From positions 1-33,522 of IMG/VR virus record IMGVR_UViG_3300046049_000069: 33,522 bases of DNA; one strand, written 5' to 3'. This document shows, one piece after another, positions 5,440 to 28,524 of this stretch (the stretch's first letter is position 1; each line of letters opens with the position of its first letter). Source of the DNA: a virus (Duplodnaviria; Caudoviricetes). Made by a program: the position numbers and the translations under genes. The notes under the pieces were generated by a model, which was not told the origin of the DNA, did not search any database, and saw only the letters and a list, made by a program, of their open reading frames with translations.

Positions 5440-6483
5440 ATGTCACACGCGAAAAGACAGGGAGCGGCGTTTTTCTCCGGGGGCTACGACTCTCTCGTCT
5501 CCACCTACAAAACGATGGAGGTGGACGGGAACGCGGACCGCGTGGTTCACGTAGACACGGGGACCGGAATCCCGTTAAACGAGCGGTTCGTCGAGGCGGC
5601 CGCACAGAACTATGGGTGGTATCTCGTTAAACTCCGTCCTCGTAAGACTTTCTGGTGGTACGCGAAAAAGTACGGGTTCCCCGGGCCGAGTAAACACTCG
5701 TGGTATTACCGGTATCTGAAAGAACACCCGATTAAGCGGTTCTGTCGTATCTACGACGGGAAGCCCTACCTCTATACGGGCGTCCGAAAGGCGGAGTCGA
5801 ACCCCCGCATGGGTCGCGTCGTCGACCTGAACGAGGCGGAGTTCGGGTATTGGAACGCTCCATTGGCGGAGTGGACGGACGAGGACGTGGAGGCGTTCCT
5901 CGTCGACCACAGCCTCCCGCGGAACCCGGTCGTCGAGGAGATAGCCCGGTCGGGGGAGTGTTACTGTATGGCGTATGGTCTCCGGGAGTTCGAGGTGGAT
6001 CTCCGCGGCTACGAGGACGAGGCCCCGCCGGAGTGGTTACGCTCCCACGTCCAACGTCTCAAACGCAAAGAGTGGGAAGTTCAGGCTTACCGCGGTCGCG
6101 TCCACGGGTATCTAAAAGAGGACTACCCGGACGTGTATGAGGCGATTCACGACTACCGGACTGAGAACGACGACTCTCGTCTCCGCCTCGCCGTCCTCCG
6201 CGAACAGCATCCGGATCTCGCGGCGGAGATAGAGTCCATAGACGAGGTGGTGGCTGTCTCAAAGGGTCGAGAACAGGACTATTCATGGTTAGGACACGGG
6301 AAAATGTCCAGTCCGGAACTCCGTCGTAAGACCATGCCGGACACACAGGAACTTCTCTGTGAGGACTGTCGGGACTCCACCTCGACCGCGGGCGTCTCTC
6401 ACCCGGATCCGGACGCCCGCCTTCTCGTCGAACCGGAGGAACCGGACGCCGGGGAACAGTCCAGTTTCGACGACCTTCTCTAA
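5440..6483 (+). CDS. PAPS reductase-family (adenine nucleotide alpha hydrolase) protein
   Basis: PP-loop FSGGYDS, VHVDTG, TGVRKAES..R, PLAEWTDEDV, SGECYC and distal CEDC. Confidence 0.85.
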   Translation: MSHAKRQGAAFFSGGYDSLVSTYKTMEVDGNADRVVHVDTGTGIPLNERFVEAAAQNYGWYLVKLRPRKTFWWYAKKYGFPGPSKHSWYYRYLKEHPIKRFCRIYDGKPYLYTGVRKAESNPRMGRVVDLNEAEFGYWNAPLAEWTDEDVEAFLVDHSLPRNPVVEEIARSGECYCMAYGLREFEVDLRGYEDEAPPEWLRSHVQRLKRKEWEVQAYRGRVHGYLKEDYPDVYEAIHDYRTENDDSRLRLAVLREQHPDLAAEIESIDEVVAVSKGREQDYSWLGHGKMSSPELRRKTMPDTQELLCEDCRDSTSTAGVSHPDPDARLLVEPEEPDAGEQSSFDDLL

Positions 6484-9956: not shown

Positions 9957-10280
9957 ATGAGAGACAAACACCGTCGAACGAACAGGACGGTCGGCACGAA
10001 CCAGCCGACGACCACCCCGACGGGACAGGGACTCCGATCCCTCACAGTCATAACACCCGTCGGAGACGTCTCCGTCGCGTTCGGAGTAAACCACCATATC
10101 GCGGCGGTCGCCGCGGAGGTGTTAACCCGCCTCGAACGAGACCCGGAGCTACAGACATACAGCCTCGTCCTCGTCGAGGGTGACGAGGGGACGCCGCTGG
10201 ACCACGGGGACACGCTCGGATCCGCCGGGGTGGCAGACGGGGCGGAACTCGTCCTCGAAAGCAACCCCGTAGCGATATGA
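9957..10280 (+). CDS. Ubiquitin-like (beta-grasp, YukD/EsaB-like) protein
   Basis: PLDHGDTLGSAGVADGAELVL matches the ubiquitin/YukD C-terminal L.D..TL...G+.DG..L.L pattern; TATTTAA promoter near 9923. Confidence 0.6.
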   Translation: MRDKHRRTNRTVGTNQPTTTPTGQGLRSLTVITPVGDVSVAFGVNHHIAAVAAEVLTRLERDPELQTYSLVLVEGDEGTPLDHGDTLGSAGVADGAELVLESNPVAI

Positions 10281-17586: not shown

Positions 17587-18237
17587 ATGACTGAACAGGA
17601 TGGACGGCGGGAGGGCGTTGAGGACCCGTCCGTTCCGTGGCGCGACCTCTCCGAAACGGAGAAAGGAGAGTTCGTTAACATGTTACGGCGGGCGGGGCTG
17701 GACCTCGACTCCCGAGCGGAGGCAGAGAAATACTACGGGAACATGCACCGGGCGGACGCTGAACTCCGGCGACAGAACCAACCGCTACCCGAGGAGGTCC
17801 ATAACGAACACTACGGCGTCCTCGCCGTGGATCCGGAGACGGAACTGTTCGGAGTCGGGGAGTTCGGTCCCGGCGTCGCGGGAGCGGGAACGCCCGTATT
17901 CGAGGCGCGGACGGCGAACGACTCGTTCCTCACGTTCTGTTTCCCCCCTTCGGCGGTCGCGGACGAGTACCTCCGGGTGTTCCACGCGGTCGCGTACGAG
18001 GCGGGAGAGTTCTCGTTTCTCATGGACCGCGTGTTCGAGCGGTTCGGACCGGACGACCCCGACCCGCGGGAGGTTGTCTTTACAAACGTCGTCACGGAGT
18101 TCCTCCGTGGGGAGGACCTCGACGTGAAACTGGACGGGTTCGCGTGGCGGGAGGTCGAGATCCCCGACGGAGAACCGCACGCCGGAGAGGACGTCCGCGA
18201 ACTCGTCGGAGAGTGGAACCCCGGGAGGGAGTCGTAG
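17587..18237 (+). CDS. Hypothetical protein
   Basis: MTEQDGRREG... 216 aa, acidic. Confidence 0.65.
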   Translation: MTEQDGRREGVEDPSVPWRDLSETEKGEFVNMLRRAGLDLDSRAEAEKYYGNMHRADAELRRQNQPLPEEVHNEHYGVLAVDPETELFGVGEFGPGVAGAGTPVFEARTANDSFLTFCFPPSAVADEYLRVFHAVAYEAGEFSFLMDRVFERFGPDDPDPREVVFTNVVTEFLRGEDLDVKLDGFAWREVEIPDGEPHAGEDVRELVGEWNPGRES

Positions 18238-18239
18238 CC

Positions 18240-18401
18240 ATGCCGGAGTGCCAAAACTGTGGGTCCCACGTCTCCGGCGACTACGCCCGCGTGTTCACTC
18301 CGAGAGATATGGAGGCCCCTCGCGTGTGTCCGTATTGTCCCGATAAAGTCCGGGACGGGCGCGACGTGCGGGCGGCGCGTTCAACGCGTCGAAACGCGTA
18401 A
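18240..18401 (+). CDS. Haloarchaeal zinc-finger microprotein (MPECQNCG...YARVF...CPYC type)
   Basis: Motif typical of haloarchaeal and haloviral small Zn proteins; TAGCCATG coupling. Confidence 0.75.
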   Translation: MPECQNCGSHVSGDYARVFTPRDMEAPRVCPYCPDKVRDGRDVRAARSTRRNA

Positions 18402-20252: not shown

Positions 20253-22832
20253 ATGGGCGCTATGGATAATTTACTCTCCGGGGTCGCGGGCGTCGAGAAC
20301 ACGGCGTCCTCACGCAGACCCCGGTCCGGGGGCCGTCACCCTGGGGGCGACGGACTCCCGGAGTCGTTGGACGACTCCCCGCTGTGGCTCCGGAAAGCGG
20401 TCACGGATGGACTACAGGCACAGCGGGGGCGAACGTCCCGGGCGGTGCTTAAACAGGAGGTGGAGCGGAAAGCCTCCCTTCCACAGGCGTTACAGAACGC
20501 CCTTGACGAGGCGGACGCCGCCCCCAAGCCCTACGACGCCGAAACCCTCCGGGACCTCAGCACGTCACCCGTCCCACAGACCTACGTCGACACATTAGCA
20601 CAGGACGCCGCCTCCGCTGACTGGACGCTCCGCCCGATAGACGAGGCGGCGGACGTCGACGCCGGACGGGTCGCCCGGATTGAACGCCGCCTCCGGAACC
20701 TCGTCCCCGACTCCACGTTCCCCGAGTTCTTAGAGGAATGGAGTCGATCTATATTGCGTCTCGGGGACGGGACCGTGGTAAAGCACTACCCCGGCGGGGA
20801 CCCCGGGAACGAGGTCGGGGAGATCGTTCACGTCGACTCCTCAACCATGTTTAAACGACTGGACATGGACGGATACGCGGACGGCTACGTTCAAATGACA
20901 GCGGCGGACGACCGGAACCGGACGGAGTTCTCGGCAACCCCGCTGGATTTAGAGGAGGTCGTCTGGGTCTCATGGGCGCGACGCGGGAACCACGTCTACG
21001 GGGAGGGCCCCGTTGAGAAAGGGCGGGATACGATAGAGATCTTAGAGGAACTATTGGAAAAGGAACTTCTTGACCTCGTGCAGGGGATGCCGCCCGGGGT
21101 TCTCTCCCGACCGCCGGACACGGAAGCGGCGATAGACGCCGAGGATTGGGAGAACTTCAAAGACGATATGCGGCTACAGCGGGGTGAACGGCATAGGTTA
21201 GCGTTCACTAAGTTCCCTGTAGATTACACAGCCCTTACGCCGAACTATCAGGAATTACAACTCCTCGAACGGTATAAGTCGAAAGTCACGGAACTCGGCG
21301 GCGTCTTTAAAGTCAATCCATCGTATGCGGGGTTCGAGTTCGAGAACGTGAACCGGGCGACGGACGAAAGCCAACAGTTAGCGTATAAACAGCGGGGGTT
21401 TCAGGTATTGATATCGCGGTTAGAGGCGGCGCTGACGTTCGGTGTTATCCCCGATATGGACGTTGAGCTCGGGCTGGATCTCGACACGCCGGACGACATG
21501 GACCTCCCGGAACTCCGGTTCGAGTTCGAGCGGGAACGAACGACGGCGGAGAAACGGACTCGGGCGAACTACATAACGGACGCTGTGAACGCCGGGAAAG
21601 AGGCGGCGGACGCCGGGCTGGACGTGCGGTGGAAAGACGGCCAACCCGTGATAGCGGACGGAGCAATGGAGGCGGGGAACGCTGGCGGTGGCGGCGGTGG
21701 GGGTGGGCTGTTCGGATCCGCGGACACGGACGACGAACTCGTTGAGGCGTATATGAAAGCCACCGGGCGGGACGACGTTCACGTATTGGGGTTCCCGATG
21801 GGCGGCGTCGCCCACAGCGGAGACGGAGAGACGTGGGCGCGGTTCATGAACGCCCTCCTCGACCGTGGGGCGGAGAAAATCGTCGACCTGAAAGCGGAAC
21901 GGAACGGCAGGACCCGGGAGTATCCAGCGGACGCCCTCCCCGGGGACCATGACCCCTTGGTCGCGGTCCACGGACTCCCGAAAAACATCGTTACGGCTGT
22001 TCTACAGCGGTTCGAGGAGGTTCACCTCCAAATGTTGAACACCGGGAAGCGTCGGGAGGCGGGTGACGGGGGAAACGCGGACCGGGACGGGGAGACGGAC
22101 GCCCCGTCCCCGCTCTCGAAAGACGAGATTGATACGCTGGACGAACTCCTGTTCCAAGCGCACACGGAACAGATATTCCCGGCGTCCGCGGACGAGATAG
22201 AGAAACGAGTGTTCTCCTCGTCGGACGTCCCGGACTACGTATTGGACAAGATCCGGGAGGCGTTGGACGACGGGGCGGTGTTCGACGCGATAGAGACCGC
22301 GGGGGACACGGTGAACGAGGCGAAAACGGCGGTTGAGGATATCCTTGAGGATAACCTTCTCGACGAGGACGGGTGGAGTCTCCGCGAGATCCGCGACGAC
22401 ATACAGGGGACGTTCGGGGACCTCTCCGAGGAGGAGGCCGAACGGATAGCCCGGACGGAAACCTCCTCAACGCTCAACACAGCCCGGGAGAAAGGCTACG
22501 AGGAGCGGGACGACGCCGGGAGCCTCGTGTTCGAGTGGGTCGGGCCGTCGGACTCCCGGACCACGATGGCGTGTGAGTTTATGAAAGACGGGTCCGCCGC
22601 GGTTGAGGACGCGGCGTTCGCGTTCGACGGCACACAGACACAGCCGCTTTCGATGGCTGAACTCAAAGCGGTCCAGAACCGCGTCGCGGACTACTATTTC
22701 CCGTCCCTGACGTGGAGAGAACACGTCCTTCATCCGGACGAGAGACACACGTTTAAGCGGGTTATCCCGGGCGTGTCCGCCGCTGCGGAGTTCCCGGGAT
22801 CCGCGGGCGTCTCCGTTGAGGGGGTCGTGTAG
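20253..22832 (+). CDS. Portal protein fused to a C-terminal MuF/SPP1 gp7-like head morphogenesis domain
   Basis: HK97-like portal motifs (LRLGDG, YGEGPVE, GMPPGVL, VFKVNPSYAG, NRAT); poly-Gly linker; MuF motif ERIARTET..LN.A...GY...WVGPSDSRT..AC...HP..RH. Confidence 0.85.
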   Translation: MGAMDNLLSGVAGVENTASSRRPRSGGRHPGGDGLPESLDDSPLWLRKAVTDGLQAQRGRTSRAVLKQEVERKASLPQALQNALDEADAAPKPYDAETLRDLSTSPVPQTYVDTLAQDAASADWTLRPIDEAADVDAGRVARIERRLRNLVPDSTFPEFLEEWSRSILRLGDGTVVKHYPGGDPGNEVGEIVHVDSSTMFKRLDMDGYADGYVQMTAADDRNRTEFSATPLDLEEVVWVSWARRGNHVYGEGPVEKGRDTIEILEELLEKELLDLVQGMPPGVLSRPPDTEAAIDAEDWENFKDDMRLQRGERHRLAFTKFPVDYTALTPNYQELQLLERYKSKVTELGGVFKVNPSYAGFEFENVNRATDESQQLAYKQRGFQVLISRLEAALTFGVIPDMDVELGLDLDTPDDMDLPELRFEFERERTTAEKRTRANYITDAVNAGKEAADAGLDVRWKDGQPVIADGAMEAGNAGGGGGGGGLFGSADTDDELVEAYMKATGRDDVHVLGFPMGGVAHSGDGETWARFMNALLDRGAEKIVDLKAERNGRTREYPADALPGDHDPLVAVHGLPKNIVTAVLQRFEEVHLQMLNTGKRREAGDGGNADRDGETDAPSPLSKDEIDTLDELLFQAHTEQIFPASADEIEKRVFSSSDVPDYVLDKIREALDDGAVFDAIETAGDTVNEAKTAVEDILEDNLLDEDGWSLREIRDDIQGTFGDLSEEEAERIARTETSSTLNTAREKGYEERDDAGSLVFEWVGPSDSRTTMACEFMKDGSAAVEDAAFAFDGTQTQPLSMAELKAVQNRVADYYFPSLTWREHVLHPDERHTFKRVIPGVSAAAEFPGSAGVSVEGVV

Positions 22833-24324: not shown

Positions 24325-24633
24325 ATGCCACACGAACGCGACCGGAGTTTCGACATAGAGAACTCGGGGACGGAGATCGTTATCGACACCGCCGGGGACC
24401 ATATCGTAGACGTGGTTATGAAAGACGGAGACGCCGCGGCGGACTACGCCCTCGACGTGTCGGACCGCAAAAGCGACTGGTTTACGGACACGGAAACGTT
24501 TTCGGGGGTTACGTCCATAGACGACGGCTACTACAACTCCCACCGGTACGTCAGGTTTAGGGTAACATCCGGAACCGGCGGATCCGGGGATACTGCGGAC
24601 GTATTGCTTTCGTCCGCCGGGAAAGGAAGGTAG
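24325..24633 (+). CDS. Small beta-sandwich protein (putative capsid decoration)
   Basis: ...SDW...RYVRFRVTS pattern; ATG 24325 lies 25 bp after the TATA element. Confidence 0.6.
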   Translation: MPHERDRSFDIENSGTEIVIDTAGDHIVDVVMKDGDAAADYALDVSDRKSDWFTDTETFSGVTSIDDGYYNSHRYVRFRVTSGTGGSGDTADVLLSSAGKGR

Positions 24634-24639
24634 ACGGAT

Positions 24640-25149
24640 ATGCCATGGAAACCTACAGGAACCTCGGGGAACCCGACGGATAGCGTCTATGCGGATTTGG
24701 TTAATACAGAGGAATTAGACATTGGCGGAAGCGATTTTGCTTCTTCCGGTGACTACATCCCCCAATATACGTTTGGTCCAAACGCCAACAGACAGCTTTC
24801 TTTTACCAACACGGGGTATGATAACGATGGAGATTTAAGCCGTATTCATGTCGAATGGGACAAACTGTTTCCATCGGACGTGCAGTCCGCTGTTTTCGGA
24901 GAAATATTTATATCAACAGTAGGGACTGACGAAACAATTGATGTTCGTGTTTTCAATGGTGTTGACGGTGAGACTGTCGCAGAACAAACAGGAATTACTA
25001 CGACGGGGTTAATATCGCTTGGGCCTGTCAACTACGAGCCATTAACCACGACCGACCGAATTGCACTTCGATGGGAATGGCGGGAAAGCAACGGCGCGAA
25101 TCCGTCGGAAGTCCGAATCCCGTACATAGTCCTGGGTGCCCAATTATGA
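24640..25149 (+). CDS. Putative variable virion surface protein with low-GC 3' part
   Basis: 169 aa beta-rich; sharp drop in GC after about 24690. Confidence 0.65.
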   Translation: MPWKPTGTSGNPTDSVYADLVNTEELDIGGSDFASSGDYIPQYTFGPNANRQLSFTNTGYDNDGDLSRIHVEWDKLFPSDVQSAVFGEIFISTVGTDETIDVRVFNGVDGETVAEQTGITTTGLISLGPVNYEPLTTTDRIALRWEWRESNGANPSEVRIPYIVLGAQL

Positions 25150-25178
25150 AAAATACGTAACAAACTGTACGATAACAA

Positions 25179-25436
25179 ATGAATTGGGACCAGTACGAGG
25201 ACCTTGTCGAGAAAGCCGCGGCGTCCAAACAGGAACGGACTGCCCGAGAGGTTGAGATAGAACAGGCGCTAAACTGTTCTATGCCGGGGCTCCTCCGGCG
25301 TCTCCTCGACGAGAACGACGGGAAAGTCCGGTCGGGGCTCCGCCAGTTGAACGAGCGGCTGGACGAGGCGGGGATGGACGCGGACGTCTCGCCGAACACG
25401 TTCTACGATTATCTGGACAAATACCGACTCCGGTAG
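25179..25436 (+). CDS. Small HTH-like DNA-binding protein
   Basis: C-terminal VSPNTFYDYLDKY resembles a recognition helix; AT-rich upstream region. Confidence 0.6.
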   Translation: MNWDQYEDLVEKAAASKQERTAREVEIEQALNCSMPGLLRRLLDENDGKVRSGLRQLNERLDEAGMDADVSPNTFYDYLDKYRLR

Positions 25437-25442
25437 ACCCGC

Positions 25443-25570
25443 TGGGGGTAGATTGAAGTCCCCGGCGGGCTACTCGTCGGGTGTGGAGTCCGGCGAAAGC
25501 GGAAACCCATTTCGGGATTGAAACGAGTAGGCTGACTCCACAGTCCGGGGGATTACTCACCTCACCCCCA
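25443..25570 (+). ncRNA. Putative structured ncRNA containing a solitary CRISPR-repeat-like unit
   Basis: Complementary pairs 25443-449/25564-570, 25460-465/25545-550, 25470-477/25523-530 and 25482-490/25534-542; no credible ORF. Confidence 0.5.
25488..25524 (+). CRISPR. Solitary 37-nt CRISPR-repeat-like unit (haloarchaeal I-D-like), not an array
   Basis: GTCCGGCGAAAGCGGAAACCCATTTCGGGATTGAAAC: 37 nt, GTC start, AAACCC-N5-GGG hairpin, ATTGAAAC 3' handle; the match to I-D repeats is from recall. Confidence 0.6.
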
Positions 25571-25611
25571 CCTCCCCACCCACCACCTGGATCTCGGGCC
25601 AAACTCAACAT

Positions 25612-25634
25612 GCGGGGCGCTTTTTCCGTCCCGC
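25612..25634. terminator. Hairpin with internal T-run between convergent units
   Basis: GCGGGGCG-CTTTTTC-CGTCCCGC. Confidence 0.4.
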
Positions 25635-25658
25635 TACTCTCCACTTGAAAACGAGGGG

Positions 25659-26843
25659 TTACTGTCGGTCCGCGTTGTCGATGACTCGGTAGCCGTGGTC
25701 CGAGAGGACTCCGGCGACGGCGACGAGTTCGTCTGCGTCCACGGTCCACGCTTCACGGTCCGAGTCAAAGGTCCGGTGGGTTTCGTTCCACGGCGTCTCT
25801 TTGATAGCCTTGTTAAACGGCGTTTCACTATCGGGGGTATCCCACGGCGCGGGTGCGTCGAGTACCGCTTTCATGCCGTACTCGGATTCAACGATCTTCG
25901 TAACGCGGACCGTCGAGTGGCTGTGGGCGTCCGGCGAGGATTCGACGAGTTCGGCGTCCGGGACGTCGGCCCACGGCGACCTGTCGGCGTCCGCGTCGTC
26001 GGCGTTGTAGCGGGACTCGAACGCTCGGGCGGCGCGGGCATGGGCGGACCCTAAGGCCTCGTCGAACGCGTCCGCGACCGTCCCGACCTCGTAGTGTTCC
26101 TGTATGTTGTTGTCGTAGGCGACGAGTGGCTGGTCGGCTATCGCGTCGTAGGTTGGGAGGTCGCCCTCGGGGTCGAGGTCGCCCGGCGGGTCGCCCGATT
26201 CGACGACGCGGAGGGGGCCGTCAAAGTTGGAGTCGTAGCGGAACGCGCCTTGGCCTTTCTGTCCGGCGACGGTTTGGTGGAACGTGCGAACGGCGCGGTG
26301 GACGACGAGACGGTTCGAATCTTTTTCGTTTCGGGTGAACGCGTAGAACCCGCCGCGGGGTCCCTGAACGAGGGCGAACCGGCTTCCCGTGAGGGTTCCC
26401 CATGCGTTCGGGTTCAAAAATACGTCTCCGTCGCGGAGGTCGCGGCCGTACTCGGGCGGGGAGTAGGCGGGTTCGTCCGGTTGGGACGCGGGGGGTGTCC
26501 CCGAGATAACGGAGGCGGTGAGAGCCTGTCCTATGCGGTCCTCGGGTTCGACGACGCGGGCGACGGTCGCGGGCTGTTAACGGTCGGCCCACAGGATACG
26601 GTCGCCGGGTTTGAGGTACTCAAGGGCGTCCACCGGTCGTCCGGCGTCCTCACCGGCTAACCCGAACTCCGTCGGGAGGTCGCGGGCGTCGGCGTCCGCC
26701 TGGGGTTTGCCGCCGTCCGTTCGGATCTCCGCGTCGAGGTAGTCTGTGGCGGCGTCGCGGAGGGCGTTCTCCGCGGCGTCGCGTCCGTTTTCTCGTTCTA
26801 TCTGTCGAACCGTGTCGAGAACTGCGTTCGTCGGTCTGTTCAT
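25659..26843 (-). pseudogene. Single ~394-codon minus-strand gene interrupted by one in-frame TAA (26579-26577)
   Basis: ORFs 26577..26843 and 25659..26417 are in the same frame; the linker reads WADR*QPATVARVVEPED...DVFLNPNAW with no other stop; promoter GGTAACTTTATT and AGGAGG upstream. Confidence 0.7.
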
Positions 26844-26994
26844 AGCGGGTGTCCTCCTACGGTCTACGTTACGGAGAGGGGTATAATAAAGTTACCGGAC
26901 ACAAGGGGGAGTGTATAGCCGGCTGTATAGTCCCCACGTTCCATTATACGTAAGGCCCACCCGCCTCTACGCTACGGACGAGGGTTCCCACATA

Positions 26995-28524
26995 ATGCCG
27001 GAGTCGTTCGACGAGGCGTTCCCCGGCGGCGTCGAAGAGTGTACCCGCCGGCTCGGACAGGAACCCTCCATAGACGACCCGGAGGCGCTCTGTGGGTGGC
27101 TACAAGAACACGGGTTCGAGGCTATCGCGGACGCGGATCCGGACTCTATCCTCGCAGGGCTGGACGTCGAGTTCGTCTCCGTCGTCGACGAACCCGCACA
27201 AGACTCCGAGTGGCTCCTCGCCAAGTCCGCGGACGCGGACGCAAACGAGTGGACGCCCGGCGAGGACAAACTCAACAGCGCCCCCGTCCTCCTCAAACAA
27301 GGCAACGACGACGAGGCGGACGGGGACGACCCGGAGCGAAAGGTCTTCGCGGCGGTTCTCAAACCCGGCGAGGAGGACGCCCACGGAGATCTCCCGCCCG
27401 AACCCGAGATCGAGTCCGCCGCACATGCGTGGATGAAAGAGTCCCGGAAAATGGACTCCGACCACGACCTCCTCGACGGCGAAGGCGTCCCGATAGAGTC
27501 GTATATCGTTCGGGGCGACCCGGACGGGTTCACGACGCCCGACGGGAACACACGAGAATACCCCGAAGGAACGTGGATCCTGGGGGCTGAACTCTCCGAG
27601 GAGGCATGGAAACGGGTCGAGAACGGGGAACTCACAGGGTTCTCCATCTATGGAGGCGCGACGCGGATCAATCCGGACGCCCTCCGGACGGAGGAACAGA
27701 AACAAGCAAACGAGATCCTCAAGGCGGTCAACCTCGACGACTTAGCGGACGCTGTGGCGGCGTTCGAGGCGGACACGGGGGACGACCTCTCCGAGGCGAC
27801 CCTCGTCGAGTTCCTCACCTGGGTCGAGGCAAACCCCAACTACGACGAGACCGACGACGAGAACGTAGCGGACGGGACCCACGACTCCAACTCCAACTCC
27901 AACTCCGACGACGAGGACGACGAGGACGACGAGGACGAGGAAGAGGGCTCTATGTCCAAGGACGACGCGGTCGCGGAACAGGCGCGGGAAACACTCACGG
28001 TTTTACAGAAACACATGGGAGACGCCAACTCCGACGACGGTACCGAGGACGGACAGAACGAGATCTCGGACACGCTGGACGAGATCCGGGATCTCGCCAA
28101 GGAAACGAACGAGACGGTCCAGAAACACGCGGACCGCCTCGAATCACTCCGCGGCGACTACGACGAACTCCGCGACGAACTCGACGAGGTTCGGAAAGCG
28201 GTCGGGCTCGTCGACGGCGACGACTCCGGCGACGAGGGCGACGAGGCGGGCGAACAGACCACGGCCGGGGAGGGCGACCCCGACCCGGACGGCGGCGACG
28301 CCGACGGTGAGGCGGCGAAGGCGGTCGCGGACCTCCGCGACGACCTCGAAAAAGCTGGACTCCTCAACGACGACGAGGACGGCGACGGACACGACGAGGA
28401 CGTGACCCGGAAGGCACAGAAGAACGCGAACGTCGAGGGCGGCGGCGAGGAGAACGTCGAAAAGTCGGACGACGACGACCTCAACGTCACGTTCGAGGGG
28501 ATCACGGAGGCGACGGGAGACTAA
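26995..28524 (+). CDS. XkdF-like prohead serine protease fused to an acidic coiled-coil scaffold
   Basis: VSVVDEPA, VLKPG..DAHGD, DSDH, IESYI, GTWILG, W.RVENGELTGFSIYG; directly upstream of the capsid gene; ATG at 26995. Confidence 0.85.
   Translation: MPESFDEAFPGGVEECTRRLGQEPSIDDPEALCGWLQEHGFEAIADADPDSILAGLDVEFVSVVDEPAQDSEWLLAKSADADANEWTPGEDKLNSAPVLLKQGNDDEADGDDPERKVFAAVLKPGEEDAHGDLPPEPEIESAAHAWMKESRKMDSDHDLLDGEGVPIESYIVRGDPDGFTTPDGNTREYPEGTWILGAELSEEAWKRVENGELTGFSIYGGATRINPDALRTEEQKQANEILKAVNLDDLADAVAAFEADTGDDLSEATLVEFLTWVEANPNYDETDDENVADGTHDSNSNSNSDDEDDEDDEDEEEGSMSKDDAVAEQARETLTVLQKHMGDANSDDGTEDGQNEISDTLDEIRDLAKETNETVQKHADRLESLRGDYDELRDELDEVRKAVGLVDGDDSGDEGDEAGEQTTAGEGDPDPDGGDADGEAAKAVADLRDDLEKAGLLNDDEDGDGHDEDVTRKAQKNANVEGGGEENVEKSDDDDLNVTFEGITEATGD
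27883..27906 (+). repeat. Hexamer microsatellite (ACTCCA)n encoding SNSNSNS
   Basis: Seen directly in the sequence. Confidence 0.8.

Follow-up and report, generated by a model that had tools for sequence, protein, structure and literature searches.

A diverged haloarchaeal type I-D repeat-like unit in an HHTV-2-like virus as a candidate RNA decoy

A single 37-nt unit at positions 25488..25524 (+ strand) of an HHTV-2-like virus genome is, as judged by pattern, position weight matrix (PWM), and array comparison, a diverged mimic rather than a close copy of a haloarchaeal type I-D CRISPR repeat. We put the probability at about one in two that it acts as a Racr-like RNA decoy for Cas6d/Cascade, directed against host CRISPR immunity. 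The DNA analyzed here, referred to as the window, is the entire IMG/VR virus record of 33,522 bases, which is ~62% complete. Its gene order (terminase, portal, phrog_35927, phrog_37024, prohead protease, and major capsid protein) is the order found in Haloarcula hispanica tailed virus 2 (HHTV-2; Saparoviridae), and the record is part of the genome of an HHTV-2-like (Saparoviridae-like) virus. The terminase, the major capsid protein, the portal (20253-22832), the 455-aa protein (phrog_35927), and the prohead protease (26911-28524) were assigned by PHROG matches. The 85-aa gene (25179..25436, + strand; phrog_37024), a homolog of HHTV-2 gene 35, is the last + strand gene ahead of the repeat. Between it and a convergent - strand gene (25659..26843), a relative of HHTV-2 gene 37 with unassigned function and no PHROG family, lies the repeat-bearing gap of 222 nt (25437-25658). 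The convergent gene carries an in-frame TAA at 26577-26579, either a pseudogene mutation or a sequence error, where relatives have one uninterrupted 366-375-aa ORF; a TATA-like stretch is located upstream of it. In Atlas searches, the 85-aa protein matched nothing but viral clusters without names, and the 375-aa protein had no match. The absence of cas genes from the window, part of the original prediction, held up in the 40 ORFs scanned with PHROGs and Pfam (238 listed) of this ~62% complete genome, and no known acr gene was found near the repeat.

The 37-nt unit and its repeat family

The unit occupies exactly the predicted position and strand, and it is present once in the window even when 3 mismatches are tolerated (0.01 occurrences expected in shuffles). 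It keeps all invariant I-D bases, namely the GTC start, the AAACCCA...CGGG stem (CCC at 25506-25508 and GGG at 25514-25516), and an 8-nt handle, ATTGAAAC (25517-25524), that matches the host invariant. By analogy with the cleavage described in the accessible text of a type I-D review (PMC10212523), Cas6d is predicted to cut between 25516 and 25517. All 22 bases of the invariant frame are intact, and the remaining 15 positions are at random level. The haloarchaeal I-D identity that had been proposed from stem and handle is borne out by this frame, by a PWM score of 19.3 bits, compared with -1.5 for the best null among 100 Markov copies of the window, and by cas10d genes beside arrays of the family. 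The score is nevertheless below that of host repeats (median, 55 bits), and over positions 4-15 and 23-25 the unit scores -25, no better than random sequence (-22). Alignment to haloarchaeal repeats, suggested along with the original prediction, matched the family, although the closest host repeat shares only 28/37 bases (76%) with the unit and 20/22 across the 3' part (72 host consensus entries from two overlapping sets).

For the host side of this comparison, a query-derived pattern consisting of the 22 framing bases of the 37-mer was run against GTDB, yielding 91 stretches; these contain 1999 matches, which represent 90 distinct repeats, and 1271 spacers with a mode of 36 nt. The best 80 of the 91 stretches are nearly all haloarchaeal and mostly multicopy arrays. 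In the noncircular sample, arrays were chosen by CCC-N5-GGGATTGAAAC alone, a 19-nt core present in 55/401 Halobacteria genomes sampled, and 17 independent arrays were found among 30 loci from this search. At eight conserved positions that had not been selected for (1-3, 16-18, 22, and 26, each conserved in 15-17 of the 17 independent arrays), the 37-mer has the commonest base; its bases at positions 4, 7, 13, and 23 occur in 0/17. Since cas10d accompanies arrays of the repeat family, scoring above the cut-off in three of the five family genomes tested and adjoining the arrays in two, the subtype was assigned as I-D. Haloarchaeal I-D arrays (L008-L098 and L296-L325) and the window share the 37-nt register, the GTY start, the AAACCC-N5-GGG stem, and the ATTGAAAC end. 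In contrast to these arrays, the viral unit is a single copy, with no second I-D copy in the window and no leader or spacers, and its 5' part is swapped for sequence that pairs with the flanks.

Flanks and predicted fold

A degenerate second copy had also been suggested upstream. A possible degenerate repeat (25436..25459, + strand) does end 28 nt before the 37-mer, with a handle-like octamer, ATTGAAGT, at its end (25452-25459), but it is nearer to I-B than to I-D: the gapped score of the 40 nt ending at 25459 against four I-B repeats was equalled by 0.13% of 1500 random 40-mers of the window, compared with 3% for I-D repeats. The pattern RTTGAARY occurs three times in the window (both strands), twice at this site at a distance of 65 nt, which is inside the I-B array period of 64-68 (one array) and outside the I-D period of 69-82. 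Because these tests were set up after the site had been seen, and because the octamer is predicted to lie in the loop of a strong hairpin (25438..25469, + strand; -21 kcal/mol) whose geometry is not that of a canonical Cas6 substrate, we rate it as plausible, though unproven, that the upstream unit is a degenerate repeat, more I-B-like than I-D-like.

Either flank of the 37-mer could in principle serve as a guide, that is, the 28-nt linker (25460..25487, + strand), which holds the 5' arms of three helices, or the downstream 36 nt (25525..25560, + strand), whose sequence complements the upstream flank in three blocks as well as itself. Complementarity is perfect between 25523-25530 and 25470-25477, between 25534-25542 and 25482-25490, and between 25545-25550 and 25460-25465 (all + strand). 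By a statistic that was picked after sequence inspection, these helices comprise 18 bp between the strict 36-nt flanks (P = 0.0005; 2000 shuffles), a level equalled by 0/1313 host repeat flanks and 6/4773 window positions, and 23 bp when the end bases of the repeat are included, reached by 0/2000 shuffles. Two of the blocks cross and would form either alternative helices or a pseudoknot, the latter being outside ViennaRNA scoring. The flanks of the related locus L284, described below, contain one 8-bp complementary block (P = 0.03).

The region as a whole (25437-25570), originally put forward as a folded noncoding RNA, has a moderate predicted fold (z = -1.97; 7/200 shuffles as good), but the opposite strand folds as well (z = -2.34), and so do repeat-less relatives (L100, z = -2.43). 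The CCC/GGG stem of the repeat is predicted with a probability of 0.55-0.98 depending on context (0.97 for the local fold, 0.55-0.60 when longer RNAs are folded at 37°C); the value for L284 is 0.33, and 130 host array repeats have a median of 0.20. Once cut at 25516, the two halves are predicted to be held together by 5.5-11.8 kcal/mol, and the first eight downstream bases of the product are predicted to be 3-24% unpaired (host median, 48%); 12% of 400 host guides are equally closed there, so that a closed guide taken alone is a weak point. Farther downstream, a GC-rich hairpin with a U-rich loop (25612..25634, + strand) is common to the repeat-less relatives L100 and L103 and is likely a terminator or 3' stabilizer; homology of their hairpin with the linker hairpin of the window, with 9 shared bases only, is not claimed. 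No Rfam family matched the region of 25437-25570 at an E value of ≤1 (4227 families, ribozymes included). A hammerhead or HDV-like ribozyme, considered on account of a GAAAC that pairs back to CUACUCGU and of the crossing helices, was rejected by eye against consensus features, as catalytic core segments are missing or misplaced. By a simple pattern, no TATA-like hexamer was found in 25100-25490; a sigma-70 scan is inapplicable to archaea. No sequencing runs were listed for 24600-26600, which counts neither for nor against the unit.

Related viruses and the L284 tandem pair

Related loci were gathered by searching with three protein alignments (85-aa protein, 455-aa protein, and protease). Near-identical records were merged, and loci not spanning the interval were removed, as were five AT-rich false matches (L105, L106, and L110-L112). 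Ten other lineages span the interval: L099, the L100 group, L103, L104, L285, L293/L294, L291, HHTV-2, L295, and L284. By ungapped PWM, 9/10 have no repeat in the gene interval; the closest relatives, whose 85-aa gene is 60-69% identical, are without one, and the window-type 37-mer was seen in one contig only. A near-match to the 37-mer in L294 falls in a coding region and was discarded.

The exception is L284 (the same locus as L124 and L190; IMGVR_UViG_3300031732_000004), which has 32-46% protein identity to the window virus and also surfaced independently in an IMG/VR repeat scan (39 stretches). At L284:3955-4019 (L124:2457-2521), an I-B repeat directly abuts an I-D-like unit with zero spacer. 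The 30-nt I-B unit matches a haloarchaeal I-B array repeat at 27/30 bases, and the I-D-like unit reaches 30/37 at best and 25.5 bits. The pair is positioned between the 455-aa homolog and the protease, with the same flanking genes as in the window, which supplies the decoy option of the original prediction with an independent parallel. Its repeats fill the loop of a stem that is short-looped and repeat-less in L285, L293, and L294, and L284 shares with its closest relatives a conserved TATA-like hexamer ahead of the element, hairpins, and a pyrimidine end. A covariance model of this scaffold built without L284 finds L284 at 68 bits and has no match in the window's stretch. Because the model misses the window, the two viruses, with a common gene interval and no demonstrable common RNA family, are best read as separate acquisitions. 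In both viral I-D units, the 3' stem and handle are kept and the 5' part is drifting. The L284 pair is a cleaner candidate for a dual-subtype decoy than the window's unit. Apart from array copies, no further solitary I-B unit with more than 22/30 matches was found in at least 120 IMG/VR stretches, and the L284 pair and one host I-D repeat returned nothing real from 50,697 phage records.

Among these relatives, L285:5652-5821, L293:7460-7632, L294:7445-7617, and L291:8100-8282 share a conserved structured element of ~170 nt in the intergenic space upstream of the prohead protease gene. It combines a TATA-like hexamer with several hairpins and ends in pyrimidines, and it may be a haloviral noncoding RNA that has yet to be described. 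The 85-aa family is fused to a portal/MuF C terminus at L124:22-837 (in that clade), stands alone in the window and HHTV-2, and is present twice in L291.

Candidate roles and known systems

Were the 37-mer to act as a decoy, + strand transcription would produce it as the 3' end (3' UTR) of the transcript that runs from the portal to the 85-aa gene. The CCC/GGG stem would then be bound by host Cas6d, with cleavage just ahead of ATTGAAAC (25516/25517). The analogy is with Cas6d in cyanobacterial data, where cleavage behind the stem gives an 8-nt 5' handle and a 29-nt 3' handle (PMC10212523, accessible text). The upstream product, which would have the stem but lack a proper 5' handle, would sequester Cas6d together with Cas7d in the manner of RacrIF1 in type I-F, which needs its stem-loop and inhibits through the upstream, stem-bearing product (PMC10651486, accessible text). 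The downstream product, with a perfect handle and a guide predicted to be paired, would occupy Cas5d/Cas7d and find no target, and either product would leave fewer working Cascade complexes. Consistent with this mechanism are the retained invariant frame with its eight unselected positions, a cut-site stem predicted to form more readily than in host repeats, the seemingly independent parallel of the L284/L124 pair in a related virus, and three predicted flank helices that are rare in shuffles, host flanks, and the window alike. On the other side, identity is only 28/37, and the RNA may stay uncut, because four of its bases are unseen in the 17 arrays and Cas6 recognition is partly sequence specific (PMC10212523, accessible text); diverged repeats can escape processing in I-B (PMC9458426, accessible text). 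With no TATA-like hexamer in 25100-25490, the unit may depend on read-through of the structural operon, which may come too late to blunt interference. It is known from a single contig, its closest relatives manage without it, and no host was found. Finally, its 21 terminal bases also occur in L128 by coding coincidence, so such matches do not require a CRISPR origin. A bolder version, which we consider doubtful, holds that Saparoviridae-like haloviruses have twice, independently, built one RNA that would decoy two CRISPR subtypes, with an I-B-type and then an I-D-type unit presented in a stem's loop, the arms of that stem also locking the would-be guide; L284 would then represent the clean version, and the window a version that has diverged further and may be clamped by a pseudoknot.

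The search for a host behind this statement covered several routes. An alignment (A3) matched 0/401 Halobacteria genomes, leaving no provirus or host; a DNA search found none, with acidic low-complexity DNA and a single small host-like gene dominating its matches; and the 1271 spacers gave exact matches of ≤17 nt. Phage and plasmid sequences compared with the region by blastn gave only weak matches, those to haloarchaeal and cyanobacterial plasmids partly covering the repeat's 3' end. Integration into host arrays through the repeat, a mechanism mentioned in the accessible text of PMC10651486, is not favored: there is no integrase in the 40 ORFs scanned of this incomplete genome and no provirus.

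Of the other explanations, an inert relic is unlikely, though a serious contender. A host repeat would have been captured by recombination in a hypervariable gap, rich in hairpins, that separates convergent genes, and it would now be decaying, the fold serving termination or mRNA stability only. The random level of positions 4-15 fits such decay, as do the absence of the repeat from 9/11 lineages, the equally good fold of relatives without it (L100, z = -2.43), the lack of a dedicated promoter by the TATA-like hexamer pattern in 25100-25490, and a neighboring gene that is itself interrupted by a stop. Neutral decay should, however, also strike the invariant positions, and 22/22 of these are intact while the other 15 are at random level; moreover, a second lineage carries repeats of two subtypes in the same interval. 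Less probable than a relic is that host Cas6 was borrowed as an RNase or 3'-end cap for the structural transcript, or to separate it from a convergent antisense transcript, with immunity unaffected. In both viruses the repeats do follow directly after the last portal-block gene and precede a terminal hairpin or pyrimidine tract, but a step that relies on a 19-nt core found in just 55/401 Halobacteria genomes would fail in most hosts, and nine lineages do without the repeat. Chance or a coding by-product is very improbable. L128:2485-2521 has the same 21 terminal bases on the opposite strand as codons of a tape-measure-like motif, VSIPKWV (a source of false positives for SRU screens), and an antisense ORF of the window (25279-25749) reads the same seven residues. 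This ORF is not acidic, overlaps both neighbors, lacks a PHROG match, and does not make a credible gene. Per window, 19 fixed bases have an expectation of 1e-7, and the repeat family matched is the one found in the likely host group, in the exact 37-nt register and with the L284 parallel.

The original prediction had also allowed for a virus-made guide, as in a mini-array or a CreA/CreR-like RNA: either the linker with the handle of the degenerate unit or the downstream 36 nt with that of the 37-mer would steer host Cascade to a competing virus or a host promoter. Handle-like octamers at a distance of 65 nt, within the I-B array period of 64-68, speak for this possibility, as do a degenerate first repeat in which chiefly the handle survives, typical of CreA (PMC9458426, accessible text), and the phage mini-arrays targeting cas promoters described in the accessible text of bioRxiv 2023.03.03.530964. 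Yet the proposed search of both flanks against haloviruses and host loci gave nothing above controls: in 2.09 Mb of host and virus loci (336 sequences), neither flank beats five shuffled versions, the best matches being 23/36 for the downstream flank (shuffles, 23-24) and 21/28 for the linker (shuffles, 20-21). Five matches with PAM plus linker seed in these loci agree at only 13-15/28 bases each, and a match of the linker to L283 (21/24), at a gene end and missing the seed, equals the shuffled controls. The downstream seed pattern occurs in 0 stretches of IMG/VR and the whole downstream flank in 0/5 I-D host genomes, and PAM plus linker seed occurs in 3/401 Halobacteria genomes, a number that a rough calculation based on composition puts at about chance. 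At 28 nt, the linker falls short of 1270/1271 host spacers (32-48 nt), and the seeds are GC rich and predicted to be paired. The mutual complementarity of the flanks speaks against a functional guide. The second repeat of CreA loses its handle, whereas the second handle of the window is perfect, and the L284 repeats have no spacer between them at all. A guide is therefore improbable, and the decoy remains our preferred reading.

The decoy reading brings the unit close to the Racr/SRU elements (RacrIF1 and RacrIC1; Camara-Wilpert et al. 2023, PMC10651486), and comparisons here refer to the accessible text of that paper. Shared features are one intergenic repeat-like unit on a mobile element, a virus with no cas match in the 40 ORFs scanned and no array (~62% complete genome), and a Cas6 stem-loop and cut site that are, by prediction, kept. 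Within the 100 nt over which solitariness is judged, there is no second I-D copy, and a weak I-B-like unit ends 28 nt upstream. As to a promoter within ~250 bp upstream, a simple pattern gave no TATA-like hexamer in 25100-25490 of the window, for which read-through is possible, and a conserved one in the L284 clade. In contrast to Racrs, the unit is of haloarchaeal I-D type, its flanks are mutually complementary, it may have an I-B-like partner upstream, and its relative L284 has a clear I-B plus I-D pair. SRUFinder demands ≥90% identity over 90% of a known repeat from a database of 17,823, and the unit reaches 76%, measured against 72 host consensus entries rather than that database. Because it fails this published identity test, it is Racr/SRU-like in its proposed working and is not filed as a member. 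The Racrs tested belong to I-C, I-E, I-F, and V-A and are all bacterial. Among the matches listed, the Racr candidate table already includes SRUs of haloarchaeal I-B type and I-D SRUs of a non-haloarchaeal type; in its accessible part, 0 matches were obtained with four strings that mark the haloarchaeal I-D repeat, and the L284 record number is also absent. Several of L113-L145 (e.g., L118:2485-2566) are non-haloarchaeal viruses with solitary I-D repeats, some with a truncated second copy 12 nt later, and that table already contains at least one of them.

Viral mini-arrays and phage regulatory crlRNAs (Shmakov et al., bioRxiv 2023.03.03.530964, accessible text) likewise carry repeat-like units that rely on host Cas, with handles at a crRNA-like distance; the window differs in its dissimilar units, its short linker (28 versus 32-48 nt), its period of 65 versus 69-82 for I-D, and the lack of a PAM-flanked seed target above controls in the sets searched. 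With CreA/CreR of haloarchaeal I-B loci (PMC9458426, accessible text), it shares a degenerate first unit, of which chiefly the 8-nt handle is left, and a second unit that is better preserved. Unlike CreA, which has a handle-degenerate second repeat and sits in a cas locus beside a toxin, the window's unit is viral, has a perfect second handle and no toxin or promoter target, and is apparently paired with a unit of a different subtype. One anti-CRISPR, a protein, is named for type I-D in the accessible text of the I-D review (PMC10212523). By title and start of abstract, no paper on a haloviral I-D repeat mimic or two-subtype pair was found, with most subscription literature outside the search. 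The halovirus mimic and above all the L284 I-B plus I-D pair are short candidates testable in haloarchaea. They suggest that screens at 90% identity miss mimics keeping only the Cas6 stem and handle; if the dual-subtype reading is true, an archaeal RNA anti-CRISPR against two subtypes has been overlooked by identity-based SRU searches.

Four further elements of the window stood out. Positions 683-966, intergenic, contain an AT-rich 114-nt inverted repeat (82% complementary) with an 81-nt direct repeat at 97-nt spacing, a candidate replication origin, packaging, or operator region. At 18144-18401 (+ strand), a small zinc-finger-like protein with two CxxC motifs is encoded by DNA that matches many haloarchaeal genomes at ~72%, which suggests that the gene is likely host derived. 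Among the viral genes are also a ubiquitin-like YukD-family protein (9957-10280, + strand) and a PAPS-reductase-domain protein (5440-6483, + strand).
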